A stretch of DNA of 44,152 bases from Actinomycetes bacterium (lineage in GTDB: Bacteria > Actinomycetota > Acidimicrobiia > Acidimicrobiales > Poriferisodalaceae), in the NCBI GenBank assembly GCA_024228575.1, contig JAAETH010000310.1, positions 1 through 44,152 on the forward strand, read 5' to 3'. The position numbers and the translations under genes were made by a program. Position 1 is the stretch's first letter. Each line of letters begins with the position of its first letter. Of this stretch, positions 8,654 through 25,794 are shown piece after piece. Below the pieces are notes generated by a model. It searched no databases, was not told the origin of the DNA, and was given only the letters and a program-made list of their open reading frames with translations.

Positions 8654-11269
8654 GTGCAAGCGGCTCGTCGTTGCGCGAAGATCACCACGATGCGTGAGGA
8701 TCTGGATCTCGATCATCTTTGCGCTCCCGGCCGATCGGGGTGGGTCGTCATTGGCAAGGGGGGCGCAGGCAAGACGGCTGCCCTGCGGGCGATCGCGGCG
8801 GCGAGCGGTTCGTCGAAGCCAACGCGATGGATCAGGGGCGGGAGGCTCGCGACATCCGAACCATACGAGTCCCTCGAGGCGGTATTGCCCTTCGATGTCC
8901 TGGAGAAACTCCTCGAAGGTGGAACACGACTGGCCCGGCTGAAGGCCCAGAGAGCACTATTGGGCGGGCTCGAAACCGACGGAATCCTCGTGGTCGACGA
9001 TGCCCAGTGGTTGGATCCAGAGACCCTGGGTCTGTTGGCCGGGTTGGCCGAGTCGCGTGAATCGCTCGGACTCGAGATGGTCGTGGGCCACCGCCCGCGA
9101 CTGGACCGAAACCACCTTGCTCATCTCGACTCGATCCTGACCTTCGGTCATCCTGCGGTGGTGTTGGGACATCTTGACGATGAATCGGCCCGTCGTTACG
9201 TCGCATCGGGTCCGCTCGGCGGCCTGGGACCCGTCGCAGTCGACCATGCTGTCGGTCGTTGCGGAGGAGTGACAGGCCTGATCGATCTCCTGGCCGACTC
9301 GTGTGACACCGATTCGTCGGCCCATGAAGCCTGGGTCGGGGGATCAGCTGCCCCACCTCATGTGACCGAGGGGGTCAGGTCGAAGGTGTCGCTGTTGTCC
9401 CAGGGTGCGAGGGAACTCCTGCTCGCGATGTGTTTCGGGGCATCGCCCAACGATGACCTGGTTGAGCAACTGGACGGTGTCGCCGACCACCGCGCCCTCG
9501 GTGCAGCGATGTTCGAGATCGACGACGAGGGGTTTCTCGACGCCGACGGGGCCGAACCGGTTCCCCTGATCGCCGTCGTCGTACCCGAACTCCAGCCGCC
9601 TACCGAGCGAAGCCGCTATCACCTGACGGTTGCATCGGCGCTGTCCGGGCGTTCGGACGCGGTGGTCGCCCGCGCCGAACACCTGCTCGCCGGCGGCGAA
9701 CACTCGGCGTTGGCGGTCGATGTGTTCTTGGCCGCATGTGACCATCTCGTCGACGATGCACCCGATCTCGCGGCGGAGTGGCTCGAGCGCGCCGAATCGG
9801 GCGGCGCTGATCGACTCGAGGTCGCCACTCGCCGTGTGGTGGTGAATGTGCGGCAGGGACGACCCCTCGAAGCTATTCGAGCCGCCGGGCCGCTGTTCCA
9901 GGATGGCAACCGGGTCGATGAGTTGTTTGCCGTCGCCAACGCCTACGTGGACGCGCGGCGCCCGTCGCAGGCAGCCGGTGCCCTGATGCCAATGTTGGCG
10001 GGTAGGCCGGGCGATGTCGGCGACATCGCACACATGTCGGCTGGGCTCTGTCGAGTGATCGCAGGCTCGCTCGACGACGACTACGACATCGTCACCGCTG
10101 CGCTGGGAAGCCGCCCGTTGGCCGATCCCCAGGCCGAGGTTGCCCGGTTGGTGGCGGTTTCGGTCTGCTTGCTGGGTACGGGTGAATGGATTGCTTCGCT
10201 TGCGAGCGCCGCCGATGCCAGCGCCCTCGAGCTGGCGGTGTTGCGCGAGCAGCGACTTCCTTTCTCCGCCAATTCGTTCGCAACCTGGCTTGGCCTGTAT
10301 GTAGGCGACCTCGGCTATTCGCGTCGAATCTGTGACCGCGCTCTCGCGGCGCCGTCGCGTACCGACGCCATCCGGCGCAGCCGGGTACTTCGAAGCGAGC
10401 TCGTGTCCGTGCTCGGAGGTGCGGTCAAGACGTCGATAGACCCTCTGGCGGACTGGTCCGATCTCGGGCCAGTGGACCGGCTGGTGTCGGTTGCGGTGGC
10501 CGCGGGCGCCGCTCGCCGCTCGAACGATATCTCTCGCCTGCATCAGCTACGGCCGCTTCTACACGAGGTCCTTCTGCAACCGCCCGACCTTCTCGGTCTG
10601 GCCGCGTACGGAGAAGTCATGGCGGGCGTGGCGAGGGTCGGCGATCTCGACGTTGCGGATGCTGCGTGTGTTGCGCGCGATCGGGCAATGGAGTTCTGTG
10701 TCCAGCAGCCGGTGCAGGTTCTTCTCGCGTGGATCGATCTGCAGGTCACTATCGCTGCCGACAGGAGGGAACGGTTGCCCGCACTAGTCGATCGACTCGA
10801 GTCCATCGGTCCGCTCGAAGGTCGGCCCGGTGAATTGGTCGCGGCCATGAAGGTGTGGTGCAGCTCGCTGCACGGCTCTGTAGACGCGCAGGCTGTGACG
10901 ACTGCCGGCGGAGCACTCCGCAATCTCGGCTATCGGTGGGAGGCGACACGTATTGTTGGGACGGCGGCGATGCATATCGACGACCAGGCGGCGGCCAAGA
11001 ACCTCCTGGCTGCAGCTCGCGAGATGAGGGCTGATCTGCGCGCAAGCGACGCAGCGCACGCCCCGTTGTCCGCGAAGTTGTCCGAACGCGAGATGGAGGT
11101 GGCCGCTCTCATCAGCGACGGCAACACCCACAAACAGGTCGGCGCCAAGCTGTTCATCTCGCCCAAGACGGTTGAACACCATGTCGCCCGCATACGCCAG
11201 AGGCTTGGGGTCTCATCGCGAGCAGAGATGCTCGAGCTGATCCGCGTCGAACTCGAAACGGCGAAATAG
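8654..11269 (+). CDS. LAL-family transcriptional regulator (N-terminal AAA/STAND ATPase + C-terminal LuxR HTH); IniR-like
   Basis: 871 aa. Walker A 'VIGKGGAGKTAAL' near the N-terminus, then a long helical/TPR-like middle. C-terminal LuxR-type HTH ('EREMEVAALISDGNTHKQVGAKLFISPKTVEHHVARIRQRLGV'). Same architecture and size class as M. tuberculosis IniR (Rv0339c). Start is ambiguous: GTG at 8654 or ATG at 8690. Confidence 0.85.
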   Translation: MQAARRCAKITTMREDLDLDHLCAPGRSGWVVIGKGGAGKTAALRAIAAASGSSKPTRWIRGGRLATSEPYESLEAVLPFDVLEKLLEGGTRLARLKAQRALLGGLETDGILVVDDAQWLDPETLGLLAGLAESRESLGLEMVVGHRPRLDRNHLAHLDSILTFGHPAVVLGHLDDESARRYVASGPLGGLGPVAVDHAVGRCGGVTGLIDLLADSCDTDSSAHEAWVGGSAAPPHVTEGVRSKVSLLSQGARELLLAMCFGASPNDDLVEQLDGVADHRALGAAMFEIDDEGFLDADGAEPVPLIAVVVPELQPPTERSRYHLTVASALSGRSDAVVARAEHLLAGGEHSALAVDVFLAACDHLVDDAPDLAAEWLERAESGGADRLEVATRRVVVNVRQGRPLEAIRAAGPLFQDGNRVDELFAVANAYVDARRPSQAAGALMPMLAGRPGDVGDIAHMSAGLCRVIAGSLDDDYDIVTAALGSRPLADPQAEVARLVAVSVCLLGTGEWIASLASAADASALELAVLREQRLPFSANSFATWLGLYVGDLGYSRRICDRALAAPSRTDAIRRSRVLRSELVSVLGGAVKTSIDPLADWSDLGPVDRLVSVAVAAGAARRSNDISRLHQLRPLLHEVLLQPPDLLGLAAYGEVMAGVARVGDLDVADAACVARDRAMEFCVQQPVQVLLAWIDLQVTIAADRRERLPALVDRLESIGPLEGRPGELVAAMKVWCSSLHGSVDAQAVTTAGGALRNLGYRWEATRIVGTAAMHIDDQAAAKNLLAAAREMRADLRASDAAHAPLSAKLSEREMEVAALISDGNTHKQVGAKLFISPKTVEHHVARIRQRLGVSSRAEMLELIRVELETAK

Positions 11270-11324
11270 AACCTCGCGCGCTGGGCCGGGGACACCTTTC
11301 GCCCGTCACGACTTCTCCCGTCGA

Positions 11325-12800
11325 CTAGACCTGGGCCGCACGCCCCGCCGCCAGCAGGCCTTCACACGTACGGGTGAGGATGCGCGCTGCTTCGATCGTT
11401 TCGCGGGGCATCAGGGGATTCTCGCCCAGACGCTGCCAGTAGGTGTGCTGGCCGATGGCCAATCTGGACAACTCGCCCGCCTCGGTGTTCTGGTCGGCCC
11501 CGAGCCGCTGATGAGCGAGCCCGCCATGAGTTCCGAGCAAACGTTCGGCCCTTTCGGCATCTGGTTCGGACATGTTCACGAATCCAGAGCGGATCGCATT
11601 CAGCAGCTGAACCTCTGCGAACTCGTGCACACTCGACATGATGCGCTCGAGCTCCACGTCGAATTCACGCGAGTTGACCCCGGGGACCGAGCTGACGACA
11701 CGGTCGAAGGTCAGCAGAGCAGATCTGGCCCTGAGAACGTCGCTGCGAGCCGTCAGATGGCTGTGGAGGATTCGTCGGAGTTCGCCGAGGCCGCTGCGAT
11801 CGACGAGCATGTTCGACAATTCGGTGCTGGTGGTGGCCCGTCCCTGGCGCAATAACACAAATGCCAGGCGAACGCCGAAGATGCCGAAGCGGTCTAGCAG
11901 TTCGGAGCGTTCGATCGGCGTGATTGGCAGATCGGTCTCCGCGTTGACAAACCTGTCGACGGTCAACATCAGAGGATCGACCGCTGATCGGTCAGCCTCT
12001 GCAAGCATCAGGAGGACGCGGAACTCGTCCTGGCGCAGGGTTCCGGCGGTTTCGGCGAGTAGTCCGGCTACTGGTATGACGGTTTGACACAGCCGCTTGA
12101 TCTTCGGGTCGGCTCCATAACGCTTCGATATCCGCCGCGCCGACGCGAGTGCATCCAGCCTGCCGACACCGATCTCGTCGGCCCTCGACAAGATGCCGAT
12201 CGAGTTGATGGCACTCGGCCTCGATGTTTCCTGGTCGTGGAACGCTTCGAGGAATCGGACGTCGCTAGCGTGCAGGTGCCGCATCAGGTACAACACAGCG
12301 TCGGTCGTGCTCGCTCCATCGTCTGGTGTGAGGAAGTCGCGGGTCCGGTCCGAGAGGTGTGTGCTGATCGAATCGATACCAGGCGTGTCGATGAGGGTCA
12401 CATCGGACAGAGCCGTCGATGGCCACTCGATTTCGAGGCGTTCGATCTGGTCGGTCGGGGTGCCTCTCAGATCGATGTTCAGCGAACCCTCCTCGCGGGT
12501 GAACGGCAGCTGAGCTGGATCGCCGGCATGAGGGTGCATCGTGACCCGATAGGTCGACCCGTCGCGGTACCAGGTGACCACCGTGGTGCACTCGCCAGCG
12601 TCGGTCGGGGCCAACCGTTCGCTCACGAGGGCGTTCAACAGTGTGGACTTTCCTGCCTTCACCTTGCCGGCGATGGCAACCCGAAGCGGCTGGTCGAGTC
12701 GCCGTTTTGCCTCGTCGATCTGTTGTTGGGCTCCCGTGCCCGCCACGAGGCGCGAAGCCAAACCAGCGAGCATCGACAGCTCATCGCTCAGGACCGTCAT
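11325..12800 (-). CDS. Dynamin-family GTPase, IniC-like
   Basis: 491 aa. G1 'IAGKVKAGKSTLLNAL' and 'LAPTDAGECTTVVTWY' follow the IniC-type N-terminal pattern, with G3 'DTPGIDS'. Size matches IniC (about 490 aa). It is the last gene of the ini-like operon. Confidence 0.85.
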   Translation of the reverse strand: MTVLSDELSMLAGLASRLVAGTGAQQQIDEAKRRLDQPLRVAIAGKVKAGKSTLLNALVSERLAPTDAGECTTVVTWYRDGSTYRVTMHPHAGDPAQLPFTREEGSLNIDLRGTPTDQIERLEIEWPSTALSDVTLIDTPGIDSISTHLSDRTRDFLTPDDGASTTDAVLYLMRHLHASDVRFLEAFHDQETSRPSAINSIGILSRADEIGVGRLDALASARRISKRYGADPKIKRLCQTVIPVAGLLAETAGTLRQDEFRVLLMLAEADRSAVDPLMLTVDRFVNAETDLPITPIERSELLDRFGIFGVRLAFVLLRQGRATTSTELSNMLVDRSGLGELRRILHSHLTARSDVLRARSALLTFDRVVSSVPGVNSREFDVELERIMSSVHEFAEVQLLNAIRSGFVNMSEPDAERAERLLGTHGGLAHQRLGADQNTEAGELSRLAIGQHTYWQRLGENPLMPRETIEAARILTRTCEGLLAAGRAAQV

Positions 12801-12812
12801 CGCAGCACCCGC

Positions 12813-12914
12813 GCCTTCTGGCCGGCCCTTTGGGCCGTCTCCGTGCGGCTGTGTCTTGGTCTCGCCTTCTGGCCGGCCCTTTGGGCCGTCTCCGTGCGGC
12901 TCGGTCGTGGCCGG
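12813..12914. repeat. 51-bp tandem direct repeat (2 copies) in the iniA-like/iniC-like intergenic region, each unit containing a small GGCCC-TTT-GGGCC hairpin
   Basis: gccttctggccggccctttgggccgtctccgtgcggct occurs at 12813 and again at 12864, a 38-nt perfect match with diverged 13-nt tails. The repeat fills the 115-bp gap between the two dynamin genes. Confidence 0.8.
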
Positions 12915-12915
12915 T

Positions 12916-14739
12916 TCATGACAGGACCTCTACCGAGGCCTTGAGGATGCGCTCGAGCTGATCGATCGAAGCATCGAGCTTCTTGATCTTCTCCTTGCGT
13001 TTGGCCTGGCCGGTCTTCAGCGCGACCTGGGTTGCCTTCAGCGACTCTGTGGCCGTTGTGGCCAGCTCCCTGGCCCTTTCGAGGTTCGTATCGCGCAGAT
13101 CTCTCTGGACCTGGCGAAGGGTGTCACGGCTGTGTTTCGTCACGCCGAAGACAACCTCATCGAGGTACTTCTTGATGCCCATCTTGGCTTGCTGGCGGCG
13201 CATCGTGAGCTGGCGTTCGCGCTCCTCCTTGGCGGCCTTGCGGCCCAGCAAACCCCCGACCGCCAGGCTGATGGGCCCGAAGGTAGCCAGTCCGACCAGC
13301 GAACCGAGCATGCCGAACATCAACATGCCGCCATAGCTCCCACGCATGCCCGTGAGCATCGACTGGGCATAGGAAGGAGCTTCGGCAACCTCGACGTCTA
13401 GGGTCTTTCGCCCGGCGAGGACCTCGTCGGGGGTTGCGACCTTCACGTCGGCGATGGCATCGAGCTCGAACACGTCGAGTACACGTTCCGACAACTCGAG
13501 GGCATCGCGTCGAAGGAGATGGTAGTTCTCGGCGATGTCTGCCATCAGCCGTTCCTCGACCATCGGGAAGAGCTCGTCGCCGATCTTGGCCGGATCGTTC
13601 TCGTCGATGAGCACATCGATCTCTGCGACGAGGGTCCGGGTTCGTGTCTTCAGGTCGTGGTCGGTGTTCGATGTCAGGTCAGAGATGCCGTCGTTGAGGA
13701 CAACCTGCCACCGCGATGCAGCGGCCTTCATGTTCTCGGCTCGCTCCTTGGCCTCCCGAGCCTTGGTCTCGAGTTCCTCTCGGCTCGCGGGGTCGGCAAG
13801 TACGTCTCGCATCGTGGTCTCGGTGTCGAGCAGCTGGCCGGCGACTGCTCTGACGTCCGTCATCGCTGCAGTGACGTGGATTGTCTCTGCCTCGGCGAGG
13901 ATCTTCTGTTCGACGCGCTCGACCAGGGCGGGGAAACCACTCTCGTCGTGCATCTCGGGGTCGTTCAGGTCGAGAGCCTTGGTTCGAAGTGGCGAGGCAA
14001 CAGCAAAGATGTCGATTTCGAGACCGGCGTTCGCGAGGTGTTGCTCGTTGAGTTCGAGGATCTTCCTCCAGCGCGGGTAGACATCGATCTTGCTCATGGC
14101 GCAGATGACGTTGGGGCAGCGTTCGTATGCGATGACCAGGAACTCGAGCTCGCTCGCTGTCAATTCCTGAGAGCTGTCGGTGACGAAGACAACAGCGTCG
14201 GTCATGGCCAGAGCGCCCATGGTCGCCTTGCCATGGGCCGACTCGAGGCCTCCGACGCCAGGGGTGTCGACCACACGCAACCCGGCTCGCAGGATCCGGC
14301 GGGGAATCCTGACCTCGACGGTGTGCACCTTCTGGTTGGTGCCTGCAATGTGACCCGAGACCACGAAGGCGGCCGCGTCGTTCAGCTTGATCTCGTGACG
14401 TACATCCTCGTCGGAGCCTTCGGGGCCGGCACAGGTGATCGAAGCTTCGGAGTGTTCGGCGTAGCCGATGACGGTTGCGACGGCCGTGGCCACGTCGTCG
14501 TCGACGGGACATACTGGCGCCTTCACCAGGGCGTTGACCAGGCTCGACTTCCCCTGCTTGAACTCGCCGATGACCAGGACGGTGACCTCGGGTTCGGCGA
14601 GTCGAGCTGTTGTGGTCCTGAGTCTTGTCACGAGGTCTGCGCGTTCGAGGCGGGTGGCTGCACCCTTGACAGCCTCGACGATTTCGGTGGCTCGATTGCG
14701 TCTTGATGTCTGCTGTTCGGTGTTCACATCTACGTCCAT
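12916..14739 (-). CDS. Dynamin-family GTPase, IniA-like (bacterial dynamin-like protein with membrane paddle)
   Basis: G1 'VIGEFKQGKSSLVNAL' and G3 'VVDTPGVGG'. A long helical stalk follows, with a hydrophobic hairpin near the C-terminus (MLMFGMLGSLVGLATFGPISLAVGGLLG). The track ORF extends to 14925, but those first 62 codons overlap the upstream gene, are low-complexity, and sit upstream of a hairpin/U-tract. The ATG at 14739 is therefore preferred. Confidence 0.85.
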   Translation of the reverse strand: MDVDVNTEQQTSRRNRATEIVEAVKGAATRLERADLVTRLRTTTARLAEPEVTVLVIGEFKQGKSSLVNALVKAPVCPVDDDVATAVATVIGYAEHSEASITCAGPEGSDEDVRHEIKLNDAAAFVVSGHIAGTNQKVHTVEVRIPRRILRAGLRVVDTPGVGGLESAHGKATMGALAMTDAVVFVTDSSQELTASELEFLVIAYERCPNVICAMSKIDVYPRWRKILELNEQHLANAGLEIDIFAVASPLRTKALDLNDPEMHDESGFPALVERVEQKILAEAETIHVTAAMTDVRAVAGQLLDTETTMRDVLADPASREELETKAREAKERAENMKAAASRWQVVLNDGISDLTSNTDHDLKTRTRTLVAEIDVLIDENDPAKIGDELFPMVEERLMADIAENYHLLRRDALELSERVLDVFELDAIADVKVATPDEVLAGRKTLDVEVAEAPSYAQSMLTGMRGSYGGMLMFGMLGSLVGLATFGPISLAVGGLLGRKAAKEERERQLTMRRQQAKMGIKKYLDEVVFGVTKHSRDTLRQVQRDLRDTNLERARELATTATESLKATQVALKTGQAKRKEKIKKLDASIDQLERILKASVEVLS

Positions 14740-14740
14740 G

Positions 14741-14784
14741 AAAAGAGAGAACTCGGGTCCCGACCGGTGGCCGGGACCCGAGTT
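14741..14784 (-). terminator. Intrinsic terminator/attenuator-like hairpin + U-tract between the iniB-like and iniA-like genes
   Basis: The minus-strand RNA would read ACUCGGGUCCCG-GCCACCGGU-CGGGACCCGAGU. That is a perfect 12-13 bp GC-rich stem with a 9-nt loop, followed immediately by UUCUCUCUUUU and then the ATG of the iniA-like gene. Confidence 0.55.
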
Positions 14785-14812
14785 TGTCGCTAAGTCGGGT
14801 TGGAAATCCAGC

Positions 14813-16462
14813 TCAGTCGAGGATCTCCACGTCGCCAGTGTCGAAGTTGGCTTCTTCGGTGACGTCGACACTGTCGGCGACCGCAGTGCCGAAGTCCTCG
14901 GACAACGCCGAGCCGTGGTCAGCAACGTTCGAATCGTCGATCGTCGTGAGATCGGTGTCGATCTCGGTGCTGATGTCGGTGTCGATCTCGGTGTTGATGT
15001 CGGTGTCGTTGTCCTCGAGGACGTCGTTGTCTTCGATGGTGGTGGTGTCGTTGTCCTCGAGGACGTCGTTGTCTTCGATGGTTGTGGTGTCGTTGTCTTC
15101 GATGGTTGTGGTGTCGTTGTCCTCGAGGGTTGTGGTTGTGGTGTCGTTGTCCTCGATGGTGGTCGTGGTGGTGTCGTTGTCCTCGTTCGTCGTCTCGACG
15201 TCGGTGACGGTCTGGTCGCCCTGGAGGTTCAGGTTCAGGTCGTCGCCGCTCGAGATGTCGCCGATGCTGAGGTCGGTCTGGTCGCCGGCGCCCGTGTTGA
15301 CATTGCCTTCGCTGTCGATGGCGTCGCCACCAGCTGCCTGGGAACCGTCGGTGGCGGTGATGTTGCCGTCGCCGACCACTGTGGTTCCGCTGCCACCGCT
15401 GGCGTCGACCTGGGTGACCTCGGAGCCGTCGGTTGCGACGGTGGCGTCGCCACCGCTGGCGTCGATATCGGTCACCTCCGAACCGTTGGTTGCCACGTTG
15501 CCGTCGCCGGTGTTGGTGGTCATGTCGCCGCCAACCTCGCCGGTGTTGGTGCCTGTGACATCGCCGTCGCCGCTGTTGACCACGCCGTCGACATCGCCGG
15601 TCACCGTTCCACCGGACACATCACCTTGGACGACCGTCGAGCCGATCACCTCACCGGTGATCGCACCCTCGACTGGGCCGTCGGCTGCGATGGCGCCGTC
15701 GGTTGCGATGTTCGAGTCCTCGACTTCGGCGTTCTCGCCTACCTGAACCGCTCCATCGCCCGCTGTTTGGATGTCGTTCTCGACGTCGAAGTTCTTGGCG
15801 CTCACATCGCCGTCGATGTTTGTGCTGGCGTCGATGTTTGTGTCGCGATCGTCGACGTTGTTGACCGTGCTCTGGTCGATGTGGTTGGTGACGTTCGTGA
15901 CGTAGTAGGTGATCTGTTGCGACATCGCCTCGACAGGGTCGGTGGCGTCGACAACCGGGGGAGCCGGAGGAGGCGTCGGTGCTGCAGTCGGAGCGGGTGC
16001 AGGAGCAGGAGCAGGTGCGGGGCTCGAGACCGGACCTGTGGTGGTCGGCGATGCAGCGATGCCGGCATCGACCTGGCTGACGCCACCGATATCGCCGCCG
16101 GCGACGTTGGTGTCGCCCTCGACGGCTTGGTTGATGACCGGGCCCGACTGGACCGTGGTGTCGGCAACGTCGACACCCTGATCGGCGGCGTTGGAAACGG
16201 CCGCCGCCTGGTTCGTCGCCGTGGTCATGTCCATGTCGTTTGACGAGGTTGTGACCGGAGCCAGCATGCTTGCCTGCTCGGGAGGAAGCTCTTCGCTCAT
16301 CAGCGTTACAGCTTCGTGCAGGTCTTCGGGGGTCAGGTCGTCGAGGCCGTCTTGGACCAGCATCTCCTGCCGGCCGTCGGCGTCGGCTTCTGCCCAGGCC
16401 TGCTGCTTTTCTCCGAACATGATGTCGTAGAGCTTGTCGAAGATCATGGTGTCATCCGCCAT
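14813..16462 (-). CDS. Highly acidic Asp/Thr/Gly/Val-rich tandem-repeat protein in the IniB position (IniB-like by context only)
   Basis: Start ATG at 16462 is preceded by AAAGAGG (the track ORF starts at 16519). A short N-terminal segment 'MADDTMIFDKLYDIMFGEKQQAW' and an APAPAPAP linker lead into about 400 aa of low complexity with octapeptide repeats (IEDNDTTT/LEDNDTTT, IDTDISTE). It is the first gene of the operon, followed by two dynamins, as in iniB-iniA-iniC. Composition differs from the Gly/Ala-rich M. tuberculosis IniB, so this is a positional analogue only. Confidence 0.6.
   Translation of the reverse strand: MADDTMIFDKLYDIMFGEKQQAWAEADADGRQEMLVQDGLDDLTPEDLHEAVTLMSEELPPEQASMLAPVTTSSNDMDMTTATNQAAAVSNAADQGVDVADTTVQSGPVINQAVEGDTNVAGGDIGGVSQVDAGIAASPTTTGPVSSPAPAPAPAPAPTAAPTPPPAPPVVDATDPVEAMSQQITYYVTNVTNHIDQSTVNNVDDRDTNIDASTNIDGDVSAKNFDVENDIQTAGDGAVQVGENAEVEDSNIATDGAIAADGPVEGAITGEVIGSTVVQGDVSGGTVTGDVDGVVNSGDGDVTGTNTGEVGGDMTTNTGDGNVATNGSEVTDIDASGGDATVATDGSEVTQVDASGGSGTTVVGDGNITATDGSQAAGGDAIDSEGNVNTGAGDQTDLSIGDISSGDDLNLNLQGDQTVTDVETTNEDNDTTTTTIEDNDTTTTTLEDNDTTTIEDNDTTTIEDNDVLEDNDTTTIEDNDVLEDNDTDINTEIDTDISTEIDTDLTTIDDSNVADHGSALSEDFGTAVADSVDVTEEANFDTGDVEILD
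14935..15190. repeat. Intragenic tandem repeats (21/24/42-bp units) encoding octapeptide repeats of the acidic IniB-like protein
   Basis: Near-identical units are visible directly (gtcgttgtcctcgaggacgtcgttgtcttcgatggtKgtggtgtcgttgtc...). They encode IEDNDTTT/LEDNDTTT repeats on the minus strand. A second array (ggtgtcgatctcggtgYtgat) encodes the IDTDISTE repeats. Confidence 0.85.
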
Positions 16463-16703
16463 TGTCGTGCCTCTTTCGTGCTTCTCGGCGCCCGGCGCCG
16501 TGTTGTTGTGCATCCACACCGTTGTTGGTGTGTGACATCAACGTACGGAGAATCCGATCCGAGGTCATCGGGGAGAATCCACCCTTGTCGTCGGGTAGGT
16601 GGGAGCCCGATCCCCCTAGGCGTCGATGGGGGATTGGGCGATGCCCCGTAGGGGGTTCGGGGGGTGCTTGGGGGACAACCCCTCGCCGGACCCACCGTTG
16701 TGG
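16463..16703 (-). promoter_or_regulatory. Promoter/operator region of the ini-like operon: palindromes, GGAGAATCC direct repeat and a G-run cluster
   Basis: A 240-bp non-coding gap between the CBS gene stop and the iniB-like start. Contains CACACC-N6-GGTGTG, GGAGAATCC twice about 30 bp apart, and ATCCCCC-N11-GGGGGAT. Plus-strand G-runs: GGGGG-N3-GGG-N12-GGGGG-N3-GGGGGG-N5-GGGGG (about 16617-16672). Confidence 0.45.
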
Positions 16704-17117
16704 TCACTGTTCGGTGGTGTCGACGATGTAGCGGGCCAGGTCGGTGGTCGTGACGATGCCGGCGAGCCGGTCCTCGTCGAGAACAACGATCGAGTGGAAG
16801 GTGCCCTGAGACAAGATGATTGCGGCATCGCGCACCGAGGACGTCGCCGAAATCGATTGAAGGCCCACCGACATCGCGTCTTCGATGGTGTAGTACTCGT
16901 CGATCGTGTTCCGGAGAGGTCCGTCGATCTCGAACTCCATGTCGTGGAGCAACCGGACCAGATCTGTGGTCGAGAGCATCCCGACCGGCTGATCGTTCTC
17001 AGTGACGACGAGGTGGTGGTACGGGGCTGATTCGAGGGCAGACATCGCGGCGGAAAGCGGATCGGCTCTGTCGATTGTGGTCGGATCGACCGTCATGATC
17101 TTCTTGACTGGTGTCAT
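16704..17117 (-). CDS. CBS-domain pair protein (standalone)
   Basis: Two CBS-like repeats ('IMTVDPTTI...HHLVVTENDQPVGMLSTTDLV' and 'YTIEDAMS...HSIVVLDEDRLAGIVTTTDLARY'). The track ORF starts further upstream in Arg/Ser-rich low-complexity sequence, so the internal M ('MTPVKKIM') is preferred as start. Exact start is uncertain by a few nt. Confidence 0.7.
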   Translation of the reverse strand: MTPVKKIMTVDPTTIDRADPLSAAMSALESAPYHHLVVTENDQPVGMLSTTDLVRLLHDMEFEIDGPLRNTIDEYYTIEDAMSVGLQSISATSSVRDAAIILSQGTFHSIVVLDEDRLAGIVTTTDLARYIVDTTEQ

Positions 17118-17193
17118 CGGGCAAATCCTAGGCGAACCCTTCGGGGTCGGAGACCGTTCGTCGCAGGCACCCCGAGCACATCGGGCTCGGTTG

Positions 17194-17403
17194 TCAGGAT
17201 TTGGTCTTTTCAGCGGTGCTGAACTCGAACAGTCGGTACAACGGGCAGAACCCGACAGCGCCCGTGACGAGAGCGATGAGGCCCACGATTCCGAGAAGCG
17301 CGCCGAGCGTTCCGCCAACCGCGACAAATCCGACGATGATCAGCACGATGCCAAGCACCGTGCGGGCGATTCGTTCTGTATTCGCCTCGTTGATCTTCAT
17401 CAT
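17194..17403 (-). CDS. DUF2892 (YgaP-like) small membrane protein
   Basis: 69 aa 'MMKINEANTERIARTVLGIVLIIVGF...GFCPLYRLF', the typical DUF2892 signature with two TM helices. A perfect AAGGAGG Shine-Dalgarno lies 5 nt upstream of the ATG. The longer track ORF to 17658 is low-complexity upstream sequence. Confidence 0.65.
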   Translation of the reverse strand: MMKINEANTERIARTVLGIVLIIVGFVAVGGTLGALLGIVGLIALVTGAVGFCPLYRLFEFSTAEKTKS

Positions 17404-17488
17404 TCCTCCTTGTACTTCTTCTTGTGTCCATTGTGCTGATTGGACCAACGGAATATCGAGAACTTCTTGTCGGACCGACCGCCGCACG

Positions 17489-18280
17489 CTACTTCGACGT
17501 CCAGCCGCCGTCGACTGTGATCGTCTGTCCGGTGATGTAGCTTCCCAAATCGGTCGCCAACAGCAGTAGGGCACCGTCGAGTTCACCCTCGATGCCGGCT
17601 CGGCGAAGGTACGTTCCGCTCTCGATGTAGCGTCTCCCGCCAGCGGCGGCTTCGCCATGGAACATCAGGTGGGTCAATTCGGTCTCGAAGTAACCCGGCG
17701 CGATCGTGTTGACCCTGATCGAGTGCCGAGCCCATTGAGCCGCCAACTCCTTGGTGAGGGTGTGAATGGCTCCCTTCGAGGCGACGTAGGCGGCCTGATG
17801 GTTCGGCGAAGCTGACACGAAGCCGTGCACCGACCCGATGTTGACGATGCTCCCACCGGTTCCTCGTTCGATCATCCTCGTCGCAGTCATCGCAGCCAGC
17901 ACGAAACATGCGTTGAGGTTCACATCGACCACACGCCTGAACACGGCTGGGTCCTCGTCCTCGGCCCTTGTCACAGCGTCGGACGAACCGGCGTTGTTGA
18001 CCAGGACGGCGAGGTCTCCGGGAAGGCTGCTTGCGAATTCGACGACGTCGCTCAACTGATCGTCGCAAGATACGTCGCACTGGGTTGCCACGATTCCATC
18101 GACCTCGGAGGCGAGCTGCTCGAGACGGTCCAGACGCCGGGCACAAGCCACGACCGTGGCTCCGGCATCGGCGAGAACTCTTGAGAAGCGCTCACCAAAT
18201 CCGCTGGATGCGCCCGTGACGATTGCAACCTTGCCGTCGAGGCGCGAGCTGGGTATCGGGGTGTCGTGCAGGGATGGCAT
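17489..18280 (-). CDS. Short-chain dehydrogenase/reductase (SDR) family oxidoreductase
   Basis: 'GKVAIVTGASSGFG' Rossmann motif and 'NNAG'. A YxxxK-region equivalent is present ('AAYVASKGA'). Start taken at the internal ATG (MPSLHD...), 28 nt downstream of the giant ATPase stop. Confidence 0.85.
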   Translation of the reverse strand: MPSLHDTPIPSSRLDGKVAIVTGASSGFGERFSRVLADAGATVVACARRLDRLEQLASEVDGIVATQCDVSCDDQLSDVVEFASSLPGDLAVLVNNAGSSDAVTRAEDEDPAVFRRVVDVNLNACFVLAAMTATRMIERGTGGSIVNIGSVHGFVSASPNHQAAYVASKGAIHTLTKELAAQWARHSIRVNTIAPGYFETELTHLMFHGEAAAGGRRYIESGTYLRRAGIEGELDGALLLLATDLGSYITGQTITVDGGWTSK

Positions 18281-18308
18281 CGAGCAGTTGTAGCACGATG
18301 CCGGCGCG

Positions 18309-21300
18309 TCATTGTCGGCCGAGGGCGTCGGCAATTCGACCCAGCGCTGCAACGACGTCGGCCGCGGGGTCGGCCGTTGCCCTGGCGAAGTTCGCCTTGA
18401 TCGCCTTCCAGCGCTTCTCATCTGTCGCGTCGAGGGTTCCTCGAAGGGCAGCCAGGGCCAGCAGGTTCTGCTCGGCCCTGTCGGTCAACGTCTGGGCTTC
18501 GGACGCGTAGTGATCGTCGATGACGGCCGCCAGTTCATCGTCGGTCATGGCCGGAACGATTCGCGACGATATTCGAGCCATGTTGCGGTACGAACCTTGG
18601 AGAAGGAACGGGGGAGCTTCCCGATCGGCGTCGGCGCTCGCGGCCGAGTCGACGTAGGCGTCGTTGACCTGCATGACCACGGTTGCGGCTCGATCGAGCA
18701 ACTCGAGAACCCGAACGGTCTCATCGAGCTCGGAGGAATCCCACCGATGATCGAGTCCATCGGAGCTGACGGCTCTGCGTCCGCGCGACATGGCGACCAT
18801 CACCTCGACATCGTCGATCAGTTTCGTCGACCTGGGGGCAATCGCTGGGCAGGCGGTCACGCTGTTCTCGAGATACGACAGTGCGAATTCGGCGGCGTGT
18901 TCGTCGGCGACATCGCCGAGGTTGTACACGTCGGCACGGTTCACGAGCATGTCGGGCAACTCGAACCGCGAACCGGCGGTCGAGTAGGGGTTGCCGGCCA
19001 TGACGATGGCGAATCGTTTGCTACGCAGATCGTAGGTGCGGGCTTGTCCGGCGTGTACTCCCTCGATGCGACGGGTTGCGTCGGCGAGCGGGATGAAGCG
19101 AGACAGGAACTCGGGATTCGTGAATTGGATGTCGTCGATGAACAACACGACATTGCGAGCCATCGCCAGTGCCAGGTTGACCTTCTCCACCTCGGCCCTG
19201 GCCGTTGCGTTGGGGGCGTCGGCGGGATCGAGCGATGTTGTGGCGAAACCGAGAGCGGGGCCGTTCACCTTCACCATCAGCAACCCAAGGCGTGCTGCCA
19301 TCCAAGACATGAGGGTCGTCTTGCCGTAGCCGGGGGGTGAGGTCAGGACCAGGAGCCCCGACCGACTGAGGTCGTTCGAGTCGACGGTACCCAGCTGCCG
19401 AGCCAGGTTGGCGCCGACGAGGGGAAGGAGCGTGCGGTCGATCAGGCGGTTGCGAACAAAACCGGCCATCACCACCGGCCGGTGAGAGTCGAGATCGATG
19501 TCGTCGCGGACCGCTGAAGTCACGCCACGGCGCAGTTCCTGATACGCAGGCCATCGGGTGGCCATCTCGTCGAAGAGCGGGCCGACCCGTGCCGCCAACT
19601 CGTCCAGCCGAACCGAGATCTGCCCCTGGATGATGTGGCGGTGGTCGCTGACCAGACCACTTGCTGTCACGGCTCCCGAAGTCGGCTGTTCGAAGTGGGC
19701 GATGCCCGGGGTGGCGAGGATTGCGGCAGCCTCGTCGACATCGAAGTCGAGGCGTGCGAGCCGGGGATTGGCTGCGACAAAAGCGCTGAGCCACTCGGCG
19801 AGGTGGGTGTAGCGCTCGTAGAGGTCGGTGCTGTCGATCGATGTGAGGACAACATCACGAATCCGAGACTCGACCGAAGTCTCGAACTCGTCGACCAGCT
19901 CGATGGCCGTCGATGTTGCCGGCAATAGCCCGTCGGTGGGACGGAGTTGGTCGCAGATGTAGCCAGCGGCCACCCTGCAGTCGCGGCGCGACAGAGTCGG
20001 GACGATGTTGGCGAGGTCTTGGGACACCGTTCTCTGCAGACGGTCCGACACCGTGTGGGCGTCGAAGGAGTCGAGAGCGACTCGGGCGGCCTGTACACCG
20101 GCCCCCAGCGCCTGCCGCTGCTGATCGTCGAGTTCGCTGAGAAACAGGCGACCGATGGCCCGCGCGGAACCTGGATAGCCGACACCGTCGGTGCTGCCAG
20201 TCGTCAACAGGGCGGTCAAGAGAACGGCGGCATCGTGATCGTGAACCCCGATCTCGTACCCCTCACCGTGTCGACGCTCGGCGTGTGAGCGAACTCGTTC
20301 GGCGATGTGTTCGGGTATGGCAGCTGCGCTACGCAGTTCTGACACCTTCGACCCAGAAGCGGCATCGTGGTAGACCGCCCAGGCGAGATACTCACATCTG
20401 GCGACCTCTTGTGATTCCGACGGGTAGGAGCGGTTCAGCAGGTCGGCAAATTCCGACAGCTCGTCCGTGACGTCGACCGAGAGATCGGTTCCTGTGATAT
20501 CGACACTCACGCGCCCATTTGATGTCGACATCACGGTCTCGAAGGGTTGGTGATTGGGTGCGAATCGAAACGGGCCGAACCTCAGGGCTCCGTCGTCGTC
20601 GCTGAGGTCCGAGCGATCGCGGACAGTACGACGGGCGGCTTCGGCTCCGGCTCGGAGGGCATTCTTGAGCTCGGCGGCCTGACCCGATTCGCCCAGCTCG
20701 TCCAACTCGCCGGCCAGATCGCGAACCCGGAGCACCATCTGATCGGCCGCGAATAGCGAGGCGACCTCTGCTTCGTCTTCTGCTTCCTCGGCGCGGCGCA
20801 GGATCGTGACGAGCAACCGCTCGCCCGCATCGACAAGTCGTTTGGTTCTCTGTGCCCTCTGATCGACGAGTTCGGAGCGACGTGAGCCGAAGACCTCGTT
20901 CATTCGGTCGCGCAATTCGATGATTCGGATCAGCCGGTCTGGGTCTTCTCCGTGGCGACTCTCGAGGCGTTCGGCGTTGACGAGAAGTCGAGCCAGCTCG
21001 GTGTCGACCTCGTCGGGAGTTGTGGTCGCCATGACCGCCCCCGACAGGGTCTGTTCGAGCAACGCCACCTCGGCGTCGAAGGCTTCTGCCGTTTCGTTGT
21101 CGGCCAGCTCGCGGCGCCTGGCTTCGAGCACAGCGCGCGACCTGTTCGACGCGGCTGTGATGTCGGCAACCCGGCGCACGATGCGGGTACGTGCGGTCGG
21201 ATCGACATTGTCGAGTGCCCCGACAGCGTCGACCACTGCGTCCAGATCTGACGTCACGACCGCCAACCGCGCGGCCGTCTCGGCGACCACCCCGGCCGTC

Positions 21301-23147
21301 GAGGCCTGTGTTCCCTCGATGGTCAGGTCGTCCAGGCGTGTTCTGAACTCGTCGAACGCCGTGTTGTCGTCGAGCACCTCACCGGCTCGCTCGGCCAGAG
21401 CGGTGAGAGACTTGTCGAGATCGGTGATCAGATCCACGATTGCGTCGTCGTCGACCTCGGGGATGTCTTCGAGGAGCGTCACCTCACCGCGCGCACGTCT
21501 GAGGGACCCCAGCGCAGACACAACATCTGTCGGTGTTGTTGCGTTACCGGAAGCAGCGATCTGCCTGCCCACCGAACGTCTTGCTTCGTCGATGCGGGCC
21601 GCAGCATCGGCTCTGAGCCGGCGGACCTTTGTGTACTCGTCGACCAACAGACCGGCGGTCGATGCGGTGTCGCGCATCGCGGCGTGGAGGTCGGTGGCCT
21701 CGGGGTCGGCCAACCAGAGGTTTGTGTCGAGCGCTCGGCGGGCGGCGATGATCAGTGCCTCCCAGGTGCGCTCGCTCGGGTCGGACTCGTCGAGCAGACG
21801 ACCCACGTCGAATACATCGGCCAGGCCCGACACGAGATCGGCGTTGCCTACTCGTGCCACCCAGCCATCGTCACTAGGAGCACTCGACGTGTGGTCGTCG
21901 TCGACGAATGGGGTTGTCCACCACTGGATCGGGTGAACCCGCCTCGGCTCGGCATCGTCGGCTCCGCCCCGGAACAGGACGGTGTCGCCGTTGTCGAACG
22001 TCGCGAATCCGTGGCAAGGAACGACCTGGTTGATCTCGCGTCTGACCAGGTTGTACGGAGCCAGCAGGTATTCGCCCTTGTCGCGTTGGTGGAACACGTA
22101 GAGCAGGTCTTCGCCGTTCGGCGAGGCCACGATCTCCTCGAAGATCATCCCGTCGGTGCCGAGATCGAACACTCGGGTTCCCGCCGTGGCCAGGTGATAG
22201 CCGCCGGGGAACACGACACCCTCACCTCCGGGCAACACCCGGACCGCCTTGCCGATGGCGTCGACGCGTTCGACCGAACGCGTGCGTCGACTGTAGATGT
22301 AGAAGCGAGCGGGTTCGTTGTAGAGACCGATCCTGAGTAGGACGATCTGGTCACCGACTCGGGCGAAGGCCACAGACACATCGGCGAGCGATTGGCCGGC
22401 GTCGTCGACGGCTTCCTCGATCGCTACAAACCCTCCATGGGTCCCGTCCTCGACTCTCAGCTGAAGGCGACCATTGCGGAAGCCGACGAACACCTCGTCC
22501 AGGACGGCTACTGCGGGATGGGCGCCGGCTACCTGGTCGTCTCGTCCACAGGCAACCCACGAGAAATCGTGGGCGCTGGGCCACCGATAGTCGCGGTCAC
22601 CGCGTGCGTCGACGAAGGAGACCCGACCCGCCGTGTCCACCGTCCAGCGCAGGACCACCAGGTCCTCGGTTCGTTCGCCGATGCTGAACGCTGCCAGCAT
22701 CTGTCCGCCGGCGACCCTCAGATCAACAAAGCGGGCCTTGCCGTAGAAGCGGTGGAGCTTGTCGAATTCCTCGCGAAACACCGGGTCTGAGAGGAAGTTC
22801 CGCTCATCGTCGGGTTGCAGCGGCAAGAGCTCGTCGTCGCCGCGCCGATAGAGAGCGAACACGTGCTCGGGTTCAACCTTTCCGAGGTCGAGTTCGACGT
22901 TGTACCCGAGCACCACGAGGTTGCCCACATGGGCCATGTCGCGCGGCGAGCAGGTCAACTCGGTTCGCAGGCGGTCGGATCTCGTGAGCCTGACAGGCAC
23001 AGAACCAAATGTCTGGATGCGTTCGGCATCGATCGCCGAAGCCGCCGTGAGAGCGTCGTCGACGCGTTGTGCCAGTCGGCGTCTCAGCAGGTCATAGGAC
23101 GCTCCGTCGGGAACGCCCGGGTCGTCAACCACCTGTGACCGCCTCAA
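18309..23147 (-). CDS. Giant (1612 aa) uncharacterised protein: N-terminal beta-rich region, long alpha-helical/coiled-coil middle, C-terminal AAA_5 (MoxR/McrB/dynein-like) ATPase module
   Basis: A single uninterrupted ORF with uniformly high GC3. Walker A 'LTSPPGYGKTTLMSW', Walker B 'NVVLFIDDIQ' and the sensor/AAA_5 block 'RFAIVMAGNPYSTAGSRFELPDMLVNRADV' sit in the last ~350 aa. The start overlaps the flotillin stop (TTG at 23147, or GTG at 23132 with GAGG upstream). No confident family assignment for the N-terminal 1200 aa. Confidence 0.8.
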   Translation of the reverse strand: MRRSQVVDDPGVPDGASYDLLRRRLAQRVDDALTAASAIDAERIQTFGSVPVRLTRSDRLRTELTCSPRDMAHVGNLVVLGYNVELDLGKVEPEHVFALYRRGDDELLPLQPDDERNFLSDPVFREEFDKLHRFYGKARFVDLRVAGGQMLAAFSIGERTEDLVVLRWTVDTAGRVSFVDARGDRDYRWPSAHDFSWVACGRDDQVAGAHPAVAVLDEVFVGFRNGRLQLRVEDGTHGGFVAIEEAVDDAGQSLADVSVAFARVGDQIVLLRIGLYNEPARFYIYSRRTRSVERVDAIGKAVRVLPGGEGVVFPGGYHLATAGTRVFDLGTDGMIFEEIVASPNGEDLLYVFHQRDKGEYLLAPYNLVRREINQVVPCHGFATFDNGDTVLFRGGADDAEPRRVHPIQWWTTPFVDDDHTSSAPSDDGWVARVGNADLVSGLADVFDVGRLLDESDPSERTWEALIIAARRALDTNLWLADPEATDLHAAMRDTASTAGLLVDEYTKVRRLRADAAARIDEARRSVGRQIAASGNATTPTDVVSALGSLRRARGEVTLLEDIPEVDDDAIVDLITDLDKSLTALAERAGEVLDDNTAFDEFRTRLDDLTIEGTQASTAGVVAETAARLAVVTSDLDAVVDAVGALDNVDPTARTRIVRRVADITAASNRSRAVLEARRRELADNETAEAFDAEVALLEQTLSGAVMATTTPDEVDTELARLLVNAERLESRHGEDPDRLIRIIELRDRMNEVFGSRRSELVDQRAQRTKRLVDAGERLLVTILRRAEEAEDEAEVASLFAADQMVLRVRDLAGELDELGESGQAAELKNALRAGAEAARRTVRDRSDLSDDDGALRFGPFRFAPNHQPFETVMSTSNGRVSVDITGTDLSVDVTDELSEFADLLNRSYPSESQEVARCEYLAWAVYHDAASGSKVSELRSAAAIPEHIAERVRSHAERRHGEGYEIGVHDHDAAVLLTALLTTGSTDGVGYPGSARAIGRLFLSELDDQQRQALGAGVQAARVALDSFDAHTVSDRLQRTVSQDLANIVPTLSRRDCRVAAGYICDQLRPTDGLLPATSTAIELVDEFETSVESRIRDVVLTSIDSTDLYERYTHLAEWLSAFVAANPRLARLDFDVDEAAAILATPGIAHFEQPTSGAVTASGLVSDHRHIIQGQISVRLDELAARVGPLFDEMATRWPAYQELRRGVTSAVRDDIDLDSHRPVVMAGFVRNRLIDRTLLPLVGANLARQLGTVDSNDLSRSGLLVLTSPPGYGKTTLMSWMAARLGLLMVKVNGPALGFATTSLDPADAPNATARAEVEKVNLALAMARNVVLFIDDIQFTNPEFLSRFIPLADATRRIEGVHAGQARTYDLRSKRFAIVMAGNPYSTAGSRFELPDMLVNRADVYNLGDVADEHAAEFALSYLENSVTACPAIAPRSTKLIDDVEVMVAMSRGRRAVSSDGLDHRWDSSELDETVRVLELLDRAATVVMQVNDAYVDSAASADADREAPPFLLQGSYRNMARISSRIVPAMTDDELAAVIDDHYASEAQTLTDRAEQNLLALAALRGTLDATDEKRWKAIKANFARATADPAADVVAALGRIADALGRQ

Positions 23148-25165: not shown

Positions 25166-25794
25166 CAGTTGTCTCCTGTCTCGTTGAAGATCTCTTTGTC
25201 GCGAACCACCTTGTAGATGCGCAGCTCGCGGTCCCACCCGATAAGTCGGACCAGATCACCCGCCGTCAAGCCCCTGTCGGCCGGTGCCCGAACCTCTATT
25301 CGCGACATCGTGCCGTCGTCCCAGGTGGCGTCGGCGTATCCGAACGTCTCGTCGACTCGTCCCGATCGGATGACGGCCTCGTGACCGATCAACTCGTCGT
25401 CGTGTGGTGCCCGAGCCGTTTCCATCATCGAACCGAGGGGCCTTGCGACCTTCGCTCCGAGGTACAGGGCGGAAACGAGTGAGACCACGAAGATCAAGAC
25501 TGAAACGCCGACGAGGGCTATCCCTTCGACGGGGTCGAGCAGGAACATGGCCGCGATGACGGACACGAACCAGCCGATGAGGCTGACGATGGTGATCACC
25601 ACAAGCGGTGGAACCCCGGCCATGCCGACGCCATCGAGGGCATCGCCGAGCGTTCCGTCGAGCGCATCGCCATCGAAGTCGAGCACTCCGAGGGCACCGA
25701 CCAACCACAAGACGAGTGAAATCGCCAATGGGACCCCGAAGACGAGGGCAACCGGCGAGGTCGCCGCATCCATGAATTCAGTCATCGGCTCCAC
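25165..25794 (-). CDS. NfeD-like membrane protein (YqiJ-type) with C-terminal OB-fold
   Basis: 209 aa with several TM helices followed by an OB-fold-like C-terminus ('GHEAVIRSGRVDETFGYADATWDDGTMSRIEVRAPADRGLTAGDLVRLIGWDRELRIYKV'). Lies immediately upstream of the flotillin gene, the canonical NfeD-flotillin pair. Confidence 0.8.
   Translation of the reverse strand: MEPMTEFMDAATSPVALVFGVPLAISLVLWLVGALGVLDFDGDALDGTLGDALDGVGMAGVPPLVVITIVSLIGWFVSVIAAMFLLDPVEGIALVGVSVLIFVVSLVSALYLGAKVARPLGSMMETARAPHDDELIGHEAVIRSGRVDETFGYADATWDDGTMSRIEVRAPADRGLTAGDLVRLIGWDRELRIYKVVRDKEIFNETGDN

Follow-up and report, generated by a model that had tools for sequence, protein, structure and literature searches.

The window analysed here is a 44,152-nucleotide stretch of contig JAAETH010000310.1 (assembly GCA_024228575.1), from an Actinomycetes bacterium of the Acidimicrobiales, and the gene of interest lies on its minus strand at positions 14813 to 16462. 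Immediately upstream of and co-oriented with a pair of genes for dynamin-like proteins related to IniA and IniC, this gene encodes a strongly acidic protein of 549 residues, which we identify with high confidence as a divergent member of the IniB family with a modular architecture. The elements of the gene and its product are as follows, with residues (aa) numbered along the protein.

14813..16462, minus strand: iniB-like gene, 549 aa plus stop (open reading frame, ribosome-binding site, third-position G+C content, homologues)
16470..16477, minus strand: Shine-Dalgarno-like GAAAGAGG, 7 nt before the ATG (homologue starts at the equivalent Met agree)
16262..16462, minus strand: N-terminal helical domain, aa 1-67, of a divergent IniB_NTERM type (AlphaFold2, hhalign, hidden Markov models)
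15956..16024, minus strand: Pro/Ala-rich linker, aa 147-169, formed partly from 6- and 12-bp repeats
15821..15937, minus strand: conserved helix and signature motif PVEAMSQQITYYVTNVTNHIDQST..DDRDTNIDAST, aa 176-214 (alignment, AlphaFold2)
15209..15778, minus strand: Asp/Gly/Thr/Val-rich mid-region, aa 229-418, of about ten degenerate 19-residue units (periodicity; beta-helix modelled for about the first four)
15392..15508, minus strand: 57-bp tandem duplication in 2.1 copies, two adjacent 19-aa units, ATNGSEVTDIDASGGDATV and ATDGSEVTQVDASGGSGTT (Tandem Repeats Finder)
14999..15187, minus strand: eight (I/L/N)EDND(T)n units, aa 426-488 (42-bp array of 2.4 copies and 30-bp array of 2.8 copies)
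14933..15001, minus strand: (D/E)IDTD(I/L)xT units, aa 488-510 (24-bp array of 2.4 copies)
14816..14836, minus strand: C-terminal acidic-hydrophobic tip GDVEILD (family end-motif enrichment)

The ribosome-binding site, the G+C content at third codon positions (GC3) and the conservation of the sequence indicate that this minus-strand gene is real and protein-coding. Its ATG lies at position 16462, where the alignment places the equivalent start Met of the homologues, and its GC3 is 0.815 (neighbouring genes, 0.74-0.78). The product is as acidic and as rich in Asp and Thr as the initial annotation of the locus had described it: the 549 residues include 86 Asp, 79 Thr, 35 Glu, 3 Lys and 2 Arg, that is 121 acidic versus 5 basic residues (D 15.7%, T 14.4%, G 10%, A 10%, D+E 22%), with a pI of ~2.6 by Henderson-Hasselbalch calculation and a net charge of ~-116 at pH 7. 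The absence of a signal peptide and of a transmembrane (TM) segment, also reported there, is confirmed. No signal peptide, Tat motif, TM segment or anchor was detected in the protein; the 19-residue Kyte-Doolittle mean peaks at only 0.77, and there is therefore neither a TM segment nor a signal-peptide-like hydrophobic core.

Two other parts of that description have to be revised. The region behind the linker was said to consist almost only of D, T, G, V, N, E, I, S and A, which is right for the alphabet (92.6% of residues 200-549) and wrong for the low complexity that it implies, as this part of roughly 375 residues holds a conserved mid-domain with a 19-residue periodicity and a partial beta-helix model, and residues 176-425 are 64-76% identical to the nearest orthologue. 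The segment before the (AP)n linker, taken to be short, actually spans ~146 residues and is composed of the folded 67-residue domain and a clade-specific segment.

The neighbouring genes place the protein in a known genetic setting.

12916..14739, minus strand: iniA-like dynamin-like protein, 607 aa (Dynamin_N, 2.5e-20; PDB 6J72 IniA)
11325..12800, minus strand: iniC-like dynamin-like protein, 491 aa (Dynamin_N, 2.5e-13; BDLP and IniA PDB matches)
8654..11269, plus strand: IniR-like regulator with AAA_16 and GerE/LuxR helix-turn-helix domains, 871 aa, convergent with the dynamin pair

The IniA-like protein aligns end to end (residues 19-599) with the crystallised IniA of Mycobacterium smegmatis (PDB 6J72, E 9.4e-112). 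An iniB-like gene lies directly upstream of IniA-like and then IniC-like genes in 11/11 related loci, counting only those with enough downstream DNA, and the IniR-like gene is found in the same arrangement in five loci (L001, L003, L005, L011 and L012). With this synteny, an IniA orthologue and an adjacent IniR-like regulator, the earlier assignment of the gene to the IniB position of a dynamin operon is well founded.

A word-indexed search retrieved 15 homologues, all metagenomic proteins with 44-73% identity, which share an architecture of a ~65-residue N-domain, a Pro/Ala-rich linker, a signature, an Asp/Gly/Thr/Val-rich body and a variable acidic repeat tail. A HMMER search of 1.84 billion cluster representatives extended the family to 298 sequences at E<=1e-3, of which 135 reach E<=1e-10 and 31 reach E<=1e-30; its carriers are Acidimicrobiales metagenome-assembled genomes, Pseudonocardia and Jiangellaceae. 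Among the 131 retrieved members of at least 250 residues, the median content is 20% for D+E and 2% for K+R, so that extreme acidity is a trait of the family and not a peculiarity of the window gene. Direct scans of the window protein with Pfam, NCBIfam and PADLOC gave nothing meaningful, the DEC-1_N matches being noise from the Pro/Ala linker. Likewise, a PDB sequence search with the family profiles returned no significant relative; its matches to synaptobrevin fall on the linker.

The N-terminal domain carries the link to IniB. Based on a 67-sequence alignment, AlphaFold2 (AF2) predicts five helices for residues 4-67, with predicted local distance difference test (pLDDT) values of 91-95. Close relatives of the window protein score 18-34 bits against the NCBIfam model NF038175 (IniB_NTERM; curated cut-off 40 bits), which is matched by 8 of 16 and then by 46 of 67 aligned family members, with a best E-value of 1.3e-19; the Rv0340-family model NF038176 is matched by 8 of the 67. 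The N-terminal profile of the window clade is aligned by hhalign to that of the rest of the family with a probability of 98.3% (E 2e-14), and a hidden Markov model (HMM) built from the rest of the family scores window residues 1-67 at 47 bits. Two Pseudonocardia alaniniphila proteins of the family, WP_241036636.1 and WP_241036635.1, are named 'IniB N-terminal domain-containing protein' in RefSeq. The loose echo of IniB that had been noticed at the N-terminus is thus backed by a profile-level link to IniB_NTERM. With the N-domain profile as query, no more than 7 proteins were recovered by a word-index search.

The same domain shows a second, much fainter resemblance. The 67-sequence N-profile weakly matches PDB chains of SonA, a LigA-domain precursor of a ribosomally synthesised and post-translationally modified peptide (RiPP), over ~55 residues (E 0.035-0.07), and the model TIGR04509, 'NHLP-related RiPP peptide', is matched by 3/67 members (best 4.7e-5). 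The window-clade profile alone gave no SonA/LigA match in the PDB sequence search. These marginal matches hint that IniB_NTERM could be related to leader domains of the NHLP/Nif11 type.

Behind the N-domain, the position of the linker is conserved across the family and its composition varies, being Asp/His/Arg-rich in Pseudonocardia. The signature that follows reads 'xQxINYYVTNV...DDRDTxIDNS' in the 15 homologues, with D205, D207, T208 and D211 invariant and many positions of the body conserved as well. In the homologue alignment A1, V188 and N190 are also invariant, and D211 is kept in at least 90% of the 67 sequences. The AF2 model places the INYYVTN motif on a helix formed by residues 176-199 (pLDDT 82-89).

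For the mid-region, modelling and periodicity gave independent evidence. A first AF2 run with 16 sequences left it unresolved; the 67-sequence alignment gave an improved model in which residues 230-305 form short recurring beta-strands (pLDDT 68-84). Most of residues 309-549, including all of the EDND and IDTD repeats, stay below a pLDDT of 50, and the repeat tail is predicted to be disordered. Residues 229-418 can be written as ten rows of 19 residues, with a lag-19 class identity of 0.41 versus 0.23+/-0.03 in shuffled sequences (reached by 0/5000). After deletion of one copy of the recent 57-bp (19-aa) duplication, the class identity is 0.36, which is reached by 2/5000 shuffles, or 11/1000 when corrected for scanning all lags. 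The family-average periodicity at lags 18-19 is weak, and no hexapeptide periodicity of the left-handed beta-helix kind was seen, the autocorrelation being flat at lags 1-14. Residues 311-425 are the best conserved part relative to the nearest orthologue, at locus L005 (76% identity), which argues for structure or a specific function there despite the low pLDDT.

From the model, a beta-solenoid is likely for the first four or so turns of the mid-domain; for the remaining 19-residue units it is plausible. We do not grade it higher because no bactofilin, hexapeptide or RTX sequence model matches. The bactofilin profile PF04519 found no match at E<=1-10 in the window protein or its 67 relatives, a Foldseek search against the PDB returned no structural relative, and the solenoid reading is no evidence of bactofilin membership. 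At the extreme C-terminus, a [DE]-hydrophobic-hydrophobic-[DE] pattern, picked after viewing the data, occurs in the last eight residues of 18/67 members versus 0.9% of background windows (examples are VEILD, DDEDLIDL and DDDVIDIA). This acidic-hydrophobic tip is reminiscent of short C-terminal docking motifs.

The tail is encoded by tandem repeats, for which the initial annotation had given near-perfect periods of 21, 24 and 42 bp. Tandem Repeats Finder recovers 24 bp (2.4 copies, 96% matches, 14952-15008) and 42 bp (2.4 copies, 96%, 15002-15102); 21 bp is not itself a period, corresponding instead to a 21-nt core that is common to the arrays and spaced at 24, 30 or 42 nt. It also finds a 30-bp period (2.8 copies, 92%, 15103-15185) and, absent from that annotation, the 57-bp duplication of the mid-region (2.1 copies, 83%, 15392-15508). 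Every period within the gene is divisible by three and the main arrays of 24, 30, 42 and 57 bp hold 2-3 copies each; the expected outcome is therefore length polymorphism of the disordered tail and not frameshifting. On/off phase variation was rejected, since no array period shifts the frame.

Comparison with homologues shows that repeats of this family change copy number over short evolutionary distances. The alignment of the window protein with L005, its nearest full-length orthologue (59% identity), is nearly gap-free outside the repeat tail, where the window has eight EDND units versus 3-4 in L005, with a 20-residue indel in the EDND array, and two additional 5-residue IDTD pieces. Elsewhere in the family the tail units are of other types, such as DSVVDSEIDDS and DSFNTD, and EDNDTTT is seen again in distant members. 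In Pseudonocardia, seven homologues (P0172-P0178) are 96-97% identical and 296-318 residues long; this spread in length comes almost entirely from a DRDHGGRDHDD repeat arrayed in tandem in the linker, and the remainder is almost invariant, the sole exception being an N-terminal MIT extension of P0173 that looks like a different start call. This Asp/His/Arg repeat resembles a metal-binding composition. No same-species sequence was found: a single-protein metagenome scan gave no relatives, and the exact protein is absent from a 15-billion-protein collection. The proposed expandability of the repeats is hence partly supported, at the family level and, for the window's own arrays, by differences between orthologues only.

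Two kinds of candidate regulatory elements flank the gene.

14750..14784, minus strand: GC-rich 16-bp hairpin, then CUCUCUUUUC, in the gap from the iniB-like stop to the ATG (14739) of the iniA-like gene; terminator or attenuator candidate
16612-16620, 16566-16574 and 16532-16548, minus strand: upstream shared blocks (four-locus comparison)

A comparably strong hairpin is found in the same place in L001 (~9690-9725), L002 (~9180-9220), L003 (~4590-4625), L005 (~7555-7585) and L011 (~8010-8065), and hence in all six loci examined, the window included. The window hairpin stops 10 nt short of the ATG of iniA, and no clear Shine-Dalgarno sequence precedes that ATG. Such a hairpin would fit partial termination or 3'-end stabilisation, either of which could raise the IniB-like product above the dynamins. 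The earlier suggestion that this is the most abundant product of the operon is an inference with the same basis, the conserved strong hairpin between iniB and iniA. Upstream of the start, a CCTAGGGG palindrome, TCCCCGATG and a CGTACGTT-like block are common to four Acidimicrobiales loci (the window, L001, L004 and L005) and are possible promoter or IniR-binding sites. An Rfam scan of positions 11000-18000 found nothing.

Taken together, these data identify the window protein with high confidence as the IniB of a locus of the iniR-iniBAC type, carried by an actinobacterium that is Acidimicrobiales-like; for the protein as a whole we lean, less firmly, towards adding a role as an accessory that would serve the dynamin pair through charge. 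In mycobacteria this type of locus, for which the regulator IniR has been described, responds to cell-envelope stress (PMC5760070). Isoniazid, ethambutol and a trehalose signal are among the envelope-stress inducers that mark an iniBAC-type operon. Membrane binding by IniA, which mediates fission, is electrostatic, salt-sensitive and dependent on R488/K489 of a lipid-interacting loop (PMC6715688). IniA and IniC together drive vesicle release, IniB being dispensable in species without iniB (PMC10240201). In M. tuberculosis, complementation with iniAC yields more vesicles than with iniBAC (PMC10240201), which we count in favour of this reading.

A mechanism built on these data can be put forward only tentatively and with low confidence. 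The IniB-like protein would be a cytoplasmic, membrane-proximal accessory of IniA/IniC, with the folded N-domain as docking handle, while the rigid beta-helical stalk and the polyanionic tail would work by charge and not by exact sequence. The tail could engage those basic surfaces of IniA that contact lipid, in a salt-sensitive way, during membrane binding or, alternatively, bridge to anionic lipids via Mg2+/Ca2+. Either action might tune the place and timing of IniA/IniC action during envelope stress, and the hairpin behind the gene would allow the IniB-like protein to be made in excess over the dynamins.

Several observations weigh against this reading. The window protein alone does not match NF038175 even at E<=10, and by the profile comparisons its link to IniB is transitive, through other family members. 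The hairpin is not followed by a clean U-tract. IniB of M. tuberculosis has been reported in vesicle cargo (PMC10240201) and in cell-wall fractions (PMC7350357), which does not suit a purely cytoplasmic role. Finally, mycobacterial IniB tails are Gly/Ala-rich and not acidic (PMC7350357, PMC6715688), and a charge-based mechanism therefore cannot be universal for IniB. Probably the universal feature of IniB resides in the N-domain and the locus context, and the chemistry of the tail is specific to each lineage.

Among the alternatives, a role as a high-capacity binder or sensor of Ca2+/Mg2+, which sharpens the cation-binding proposal of the initial annotation, is unlikely, though it fares best. 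The 19-residue units and tail would be disordered at low cytosolic cation concentration; an increase in cations, for instance at a membrane breach, would make them fold or polymerise as a beta-solenoid, marking sites for the dynamin pair. The large negative charge fits this, as does an acidity that is conserved across the family though the tail sequence is not; AF2 is confident in only part of the periodic region, as expected of conditionally folded repeats, and a metal site is conceivable at the invariant cluster of D205, D207, T208 and D211. The motif searches speak against it: the window protein has no EF-hand (PROSITE PS00018), RTX, DxDxDG, TSP3 or dockerin motif and 66 relatives have hardly any, the RTX nonapeptide GGxGxDxUx is absent from all of these even with a relaxed pattern, and no Ca-binding family of Pfam or NCBIfam matches. 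Nor does cation sensing suit the Gly-rich IniB of mycobacteria.

More doubtful still is that the protein leaves the cell, either along an unconventional pathway or as cargo in vesicles formed by the dynamins, and then covers these vesicles or the wall, as proposed for M. tuberculosis IniB. Its Thr- and Pro/Ala-rich segments do resemble secreted or glycosylated linkers of actinobacteria. The M. tuberculosis protein is, as said, reported in cell-wall fractions and extracellular vesicle cargo (PMC7350357, PMC10240201), and IniB expressed in M. smegmatis lowers envelope permeability (PMC7350357). However, the window protein has neither an export signal nor an anchor (hydropathy maximum 0.77), the sequence carries no hint of wall binding, and the conserved neighbours include no secretion genes.

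A further idea goes beyond the proposed accessory role and is highly speculative. IniB-family proteins would be general 'handle-plus-payload' partners of bacterial dynamin pairs: the NHLP/LigA-related handle would dock, and the payload, in the acidic clade a polyanionic beta-solenoid, would fold or polymerise where divalent cations enter through membrane lesions, thereby recruiting or gating IniA/IniC. If true, bacteria would have in this a counterpart of membrane repair triggered by Ca2+.

We consider it quite improbable that the gene is a contingency locus, in which slipped-strand changes of the repeats switch the protein or quickly tune it between strains or cells. The near-perfect arrays (92-96% matches), the differing copy numbers of orthologues and the near-identical Pseudonocardia homologues that vary just in a repeat would all suit such a locus, but units that are multiples of three in 2-3 copies per array give no frameshift and would slip at low rates, no same-species sequences were found that could reveal polymorphism, and the proposal describes lability rather than function. 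A RiPP-like precursor, with the N-domain as NHLP/LigA-type leader and the tail as modified and exported core, is very improbable: the SonA and TIGR04509 matches that favour it are marginal, the window-clade profile alone gives no SonA/LigA match, a 480-residue 'core' is far too long, and no locus has a modifying enzyme or a peptidase-ABC exporter, the conserved neighbours being dynamins, IniR and Hsp70. Lastly, a spurious reading frame or a gene on the other strand can be dismissed, as the long antisense frames (14468-16243 and 14784-15746, plus strand) are of a kind usual in GC-rich DNA and were rejected because the minus strand is favoured by the ribosome-binding site, the GC3 pattern, the conserved domain architecture, ~300 clusters of homologues and an unvarying gene order and orientation.

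The wider surroundings show some variation between loci. L001 (5767-7731), L003 (79-2058) and L011 (3299-5389) each have a divergent Hsp70/DnaK-like gene on the upstream side of their iniB-like gene, an echo of M. smegmatis, where a dnaK-like gene adjoins iniR (PMC5760070); in the window, genes for a CBS-domain protein (16704-17327) and an SDR (17489-18421) stand there instead. IniB-like paralogues occur in tandem, two or three per locus, in L002 (4933-7778), L003 (2243-5251) and L011 (5674-7950), and the window is single-copy. Short acidic 'IniB*'-like paralogues occur in L002 and L003, and the L003 paralogue at 2243-3230 appears frameshifted on a contig with 2x coverage.

Both dynamin-like proteins of the window (11325-14739, minus strand) match the PADLOC models LeoA and LeoBC (E 2.8e-22 to 4e-08), which is probably due to similarity among dynamins in general and not to a part played in defence. 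On the minus strand, a 1612-residue protein (DUF3686, DUF7902, AAA_5; 18309-23147) overlaps by 4 nt an upstream 697-residue SPFH/flotillin-like protein (23144-25237); this pair is a membrane-associated module a few kb from the dynamin locus and lies outside the conserved synteny of the other loci. A YjjI-like glycyl radical enzyme (2728-4284, minus strand; Pfam E 1e-188) is of an anaerobic type, in a region otherwise like that of aerobic actinobacteria.

Rather than a new system, the window gene represents a divergent form of a known family whose function is unexplained; the family is recognisable by its N-domain and already so named in RefSeq for some members. What appears to be undescribed is the window clade, which the curated model misses, together with the DDRDT signature, the EDND repeat tail and the mid-domain with its 19-residue period and probable beta-helical fold; the literature searched held no description of an acidic IniB variant, nor of IniB together with bactofilin.

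Three structural or biosynthetic comparisons were drawn. Bactofilins (BacA, PDB 2N3D; Thermus bactofilin, 6RIA) have right-handed beta-helix windings of ~18 residues, and the window protein differs in lacking a PF04519 match. From Ca2+-dependent beta-solenoids (RTX; region IV of the Marinomonas antifreeze protein, 3P4G) it differs in having no GGxGxDxUx-type motif, secretion system or family HMM match. With NHLP/LigA RiPP leaders (SonA, PDB 7LTC and 8T1S) it shares a weak profile resemblance over ~55 residues and a small helical domain N-terminal to a variable part, whereas the E-values are marginal, no RiPP machinery lies nearby and fold-level support was not found.

Other comparisons lie within the ini loci. 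The Rv0340 family (NF038176; 'IniB*', Boot et al. 2017) consists of short proteins with the IniB N-terminal region encoded beside iniBAC, and its model is matched by eight of the 67 members, as noted above; in the window there is one long gene instead, and the interval from the CBS-domain gene to iniA contains no second gene of the IniB* kind. The P. alaniniphila proteins WP_241036636.1 and WP_241036635.1 belong to the same family by profile and share the DDRDT motif, an acidic D/N/G-rich body and the C-terminal acidic tip, in a locus with an Hsp70-like gene, iniB-like genes, iniA, iniC and iniR. They differ in being ~300 residues long, in forming two tandem paralogues, in having a DRDHGGRDHDD linker instead of Pro/Ala, and in lacking an EDND(T)n array of the window type; identity is just 34-40% over the matched parts.

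The reference point is IniB of M. tuberculosis (Rv0341), the first gene of the isoniazid-inducible iniBAC operon. Both genes come first before iniA-iniC with an IniR-type regulator adjacent, and both products have a small N-domain of the IniB_NTERM type, then a long low-complexity region, and no signal peptide; the size of iniB is highly variable between species, the gene being absent in M. smegmatis and 3 kb long in M. marinum (PMC5760070). In contrast to the Gly/Ala-rich mycobacterial tail, the window tail is Asp/Thr/Asn/Gly-rich, in a protein of pI ~2.6. The window protein also has motifs of its own (INYYVTN, DDRDTxIDNS), the 19-residue units and the EDND repeats, its N-domain is too divergent to pass the NF038175 cut-off alone, and its host is Acidimicrobiales-like and not a mycolate actinobacterium.

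IniB is the least understood product of its operon, which in mycobacteria is a marker of drug tolerance and of stress to the cell envelope and is connected with membrane fission by dynamins and with the release of vesicles. The IniB slot is conserved well beyond mycobacteria, in Acidimicrobiales, Pseudonocardia and Jiangellaceae, where the proteins that occupy it are uniformly polyanionic, carry real motifs and probably have a beta-helical core, and the conserved N-domain and fixed place before iniA-iniC point to a dynamin-linked role. The gain is incremental and consists of a family in sharper outline and of hypotheses open to testing; an acidic IniB should be soluble and tractable in vitro with IniA/IniC, liposomes and cations. 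Set beside Rv0341, the acidic protein amounts to a second, chemically opposite IniB, and any model of IniB function must fit both.

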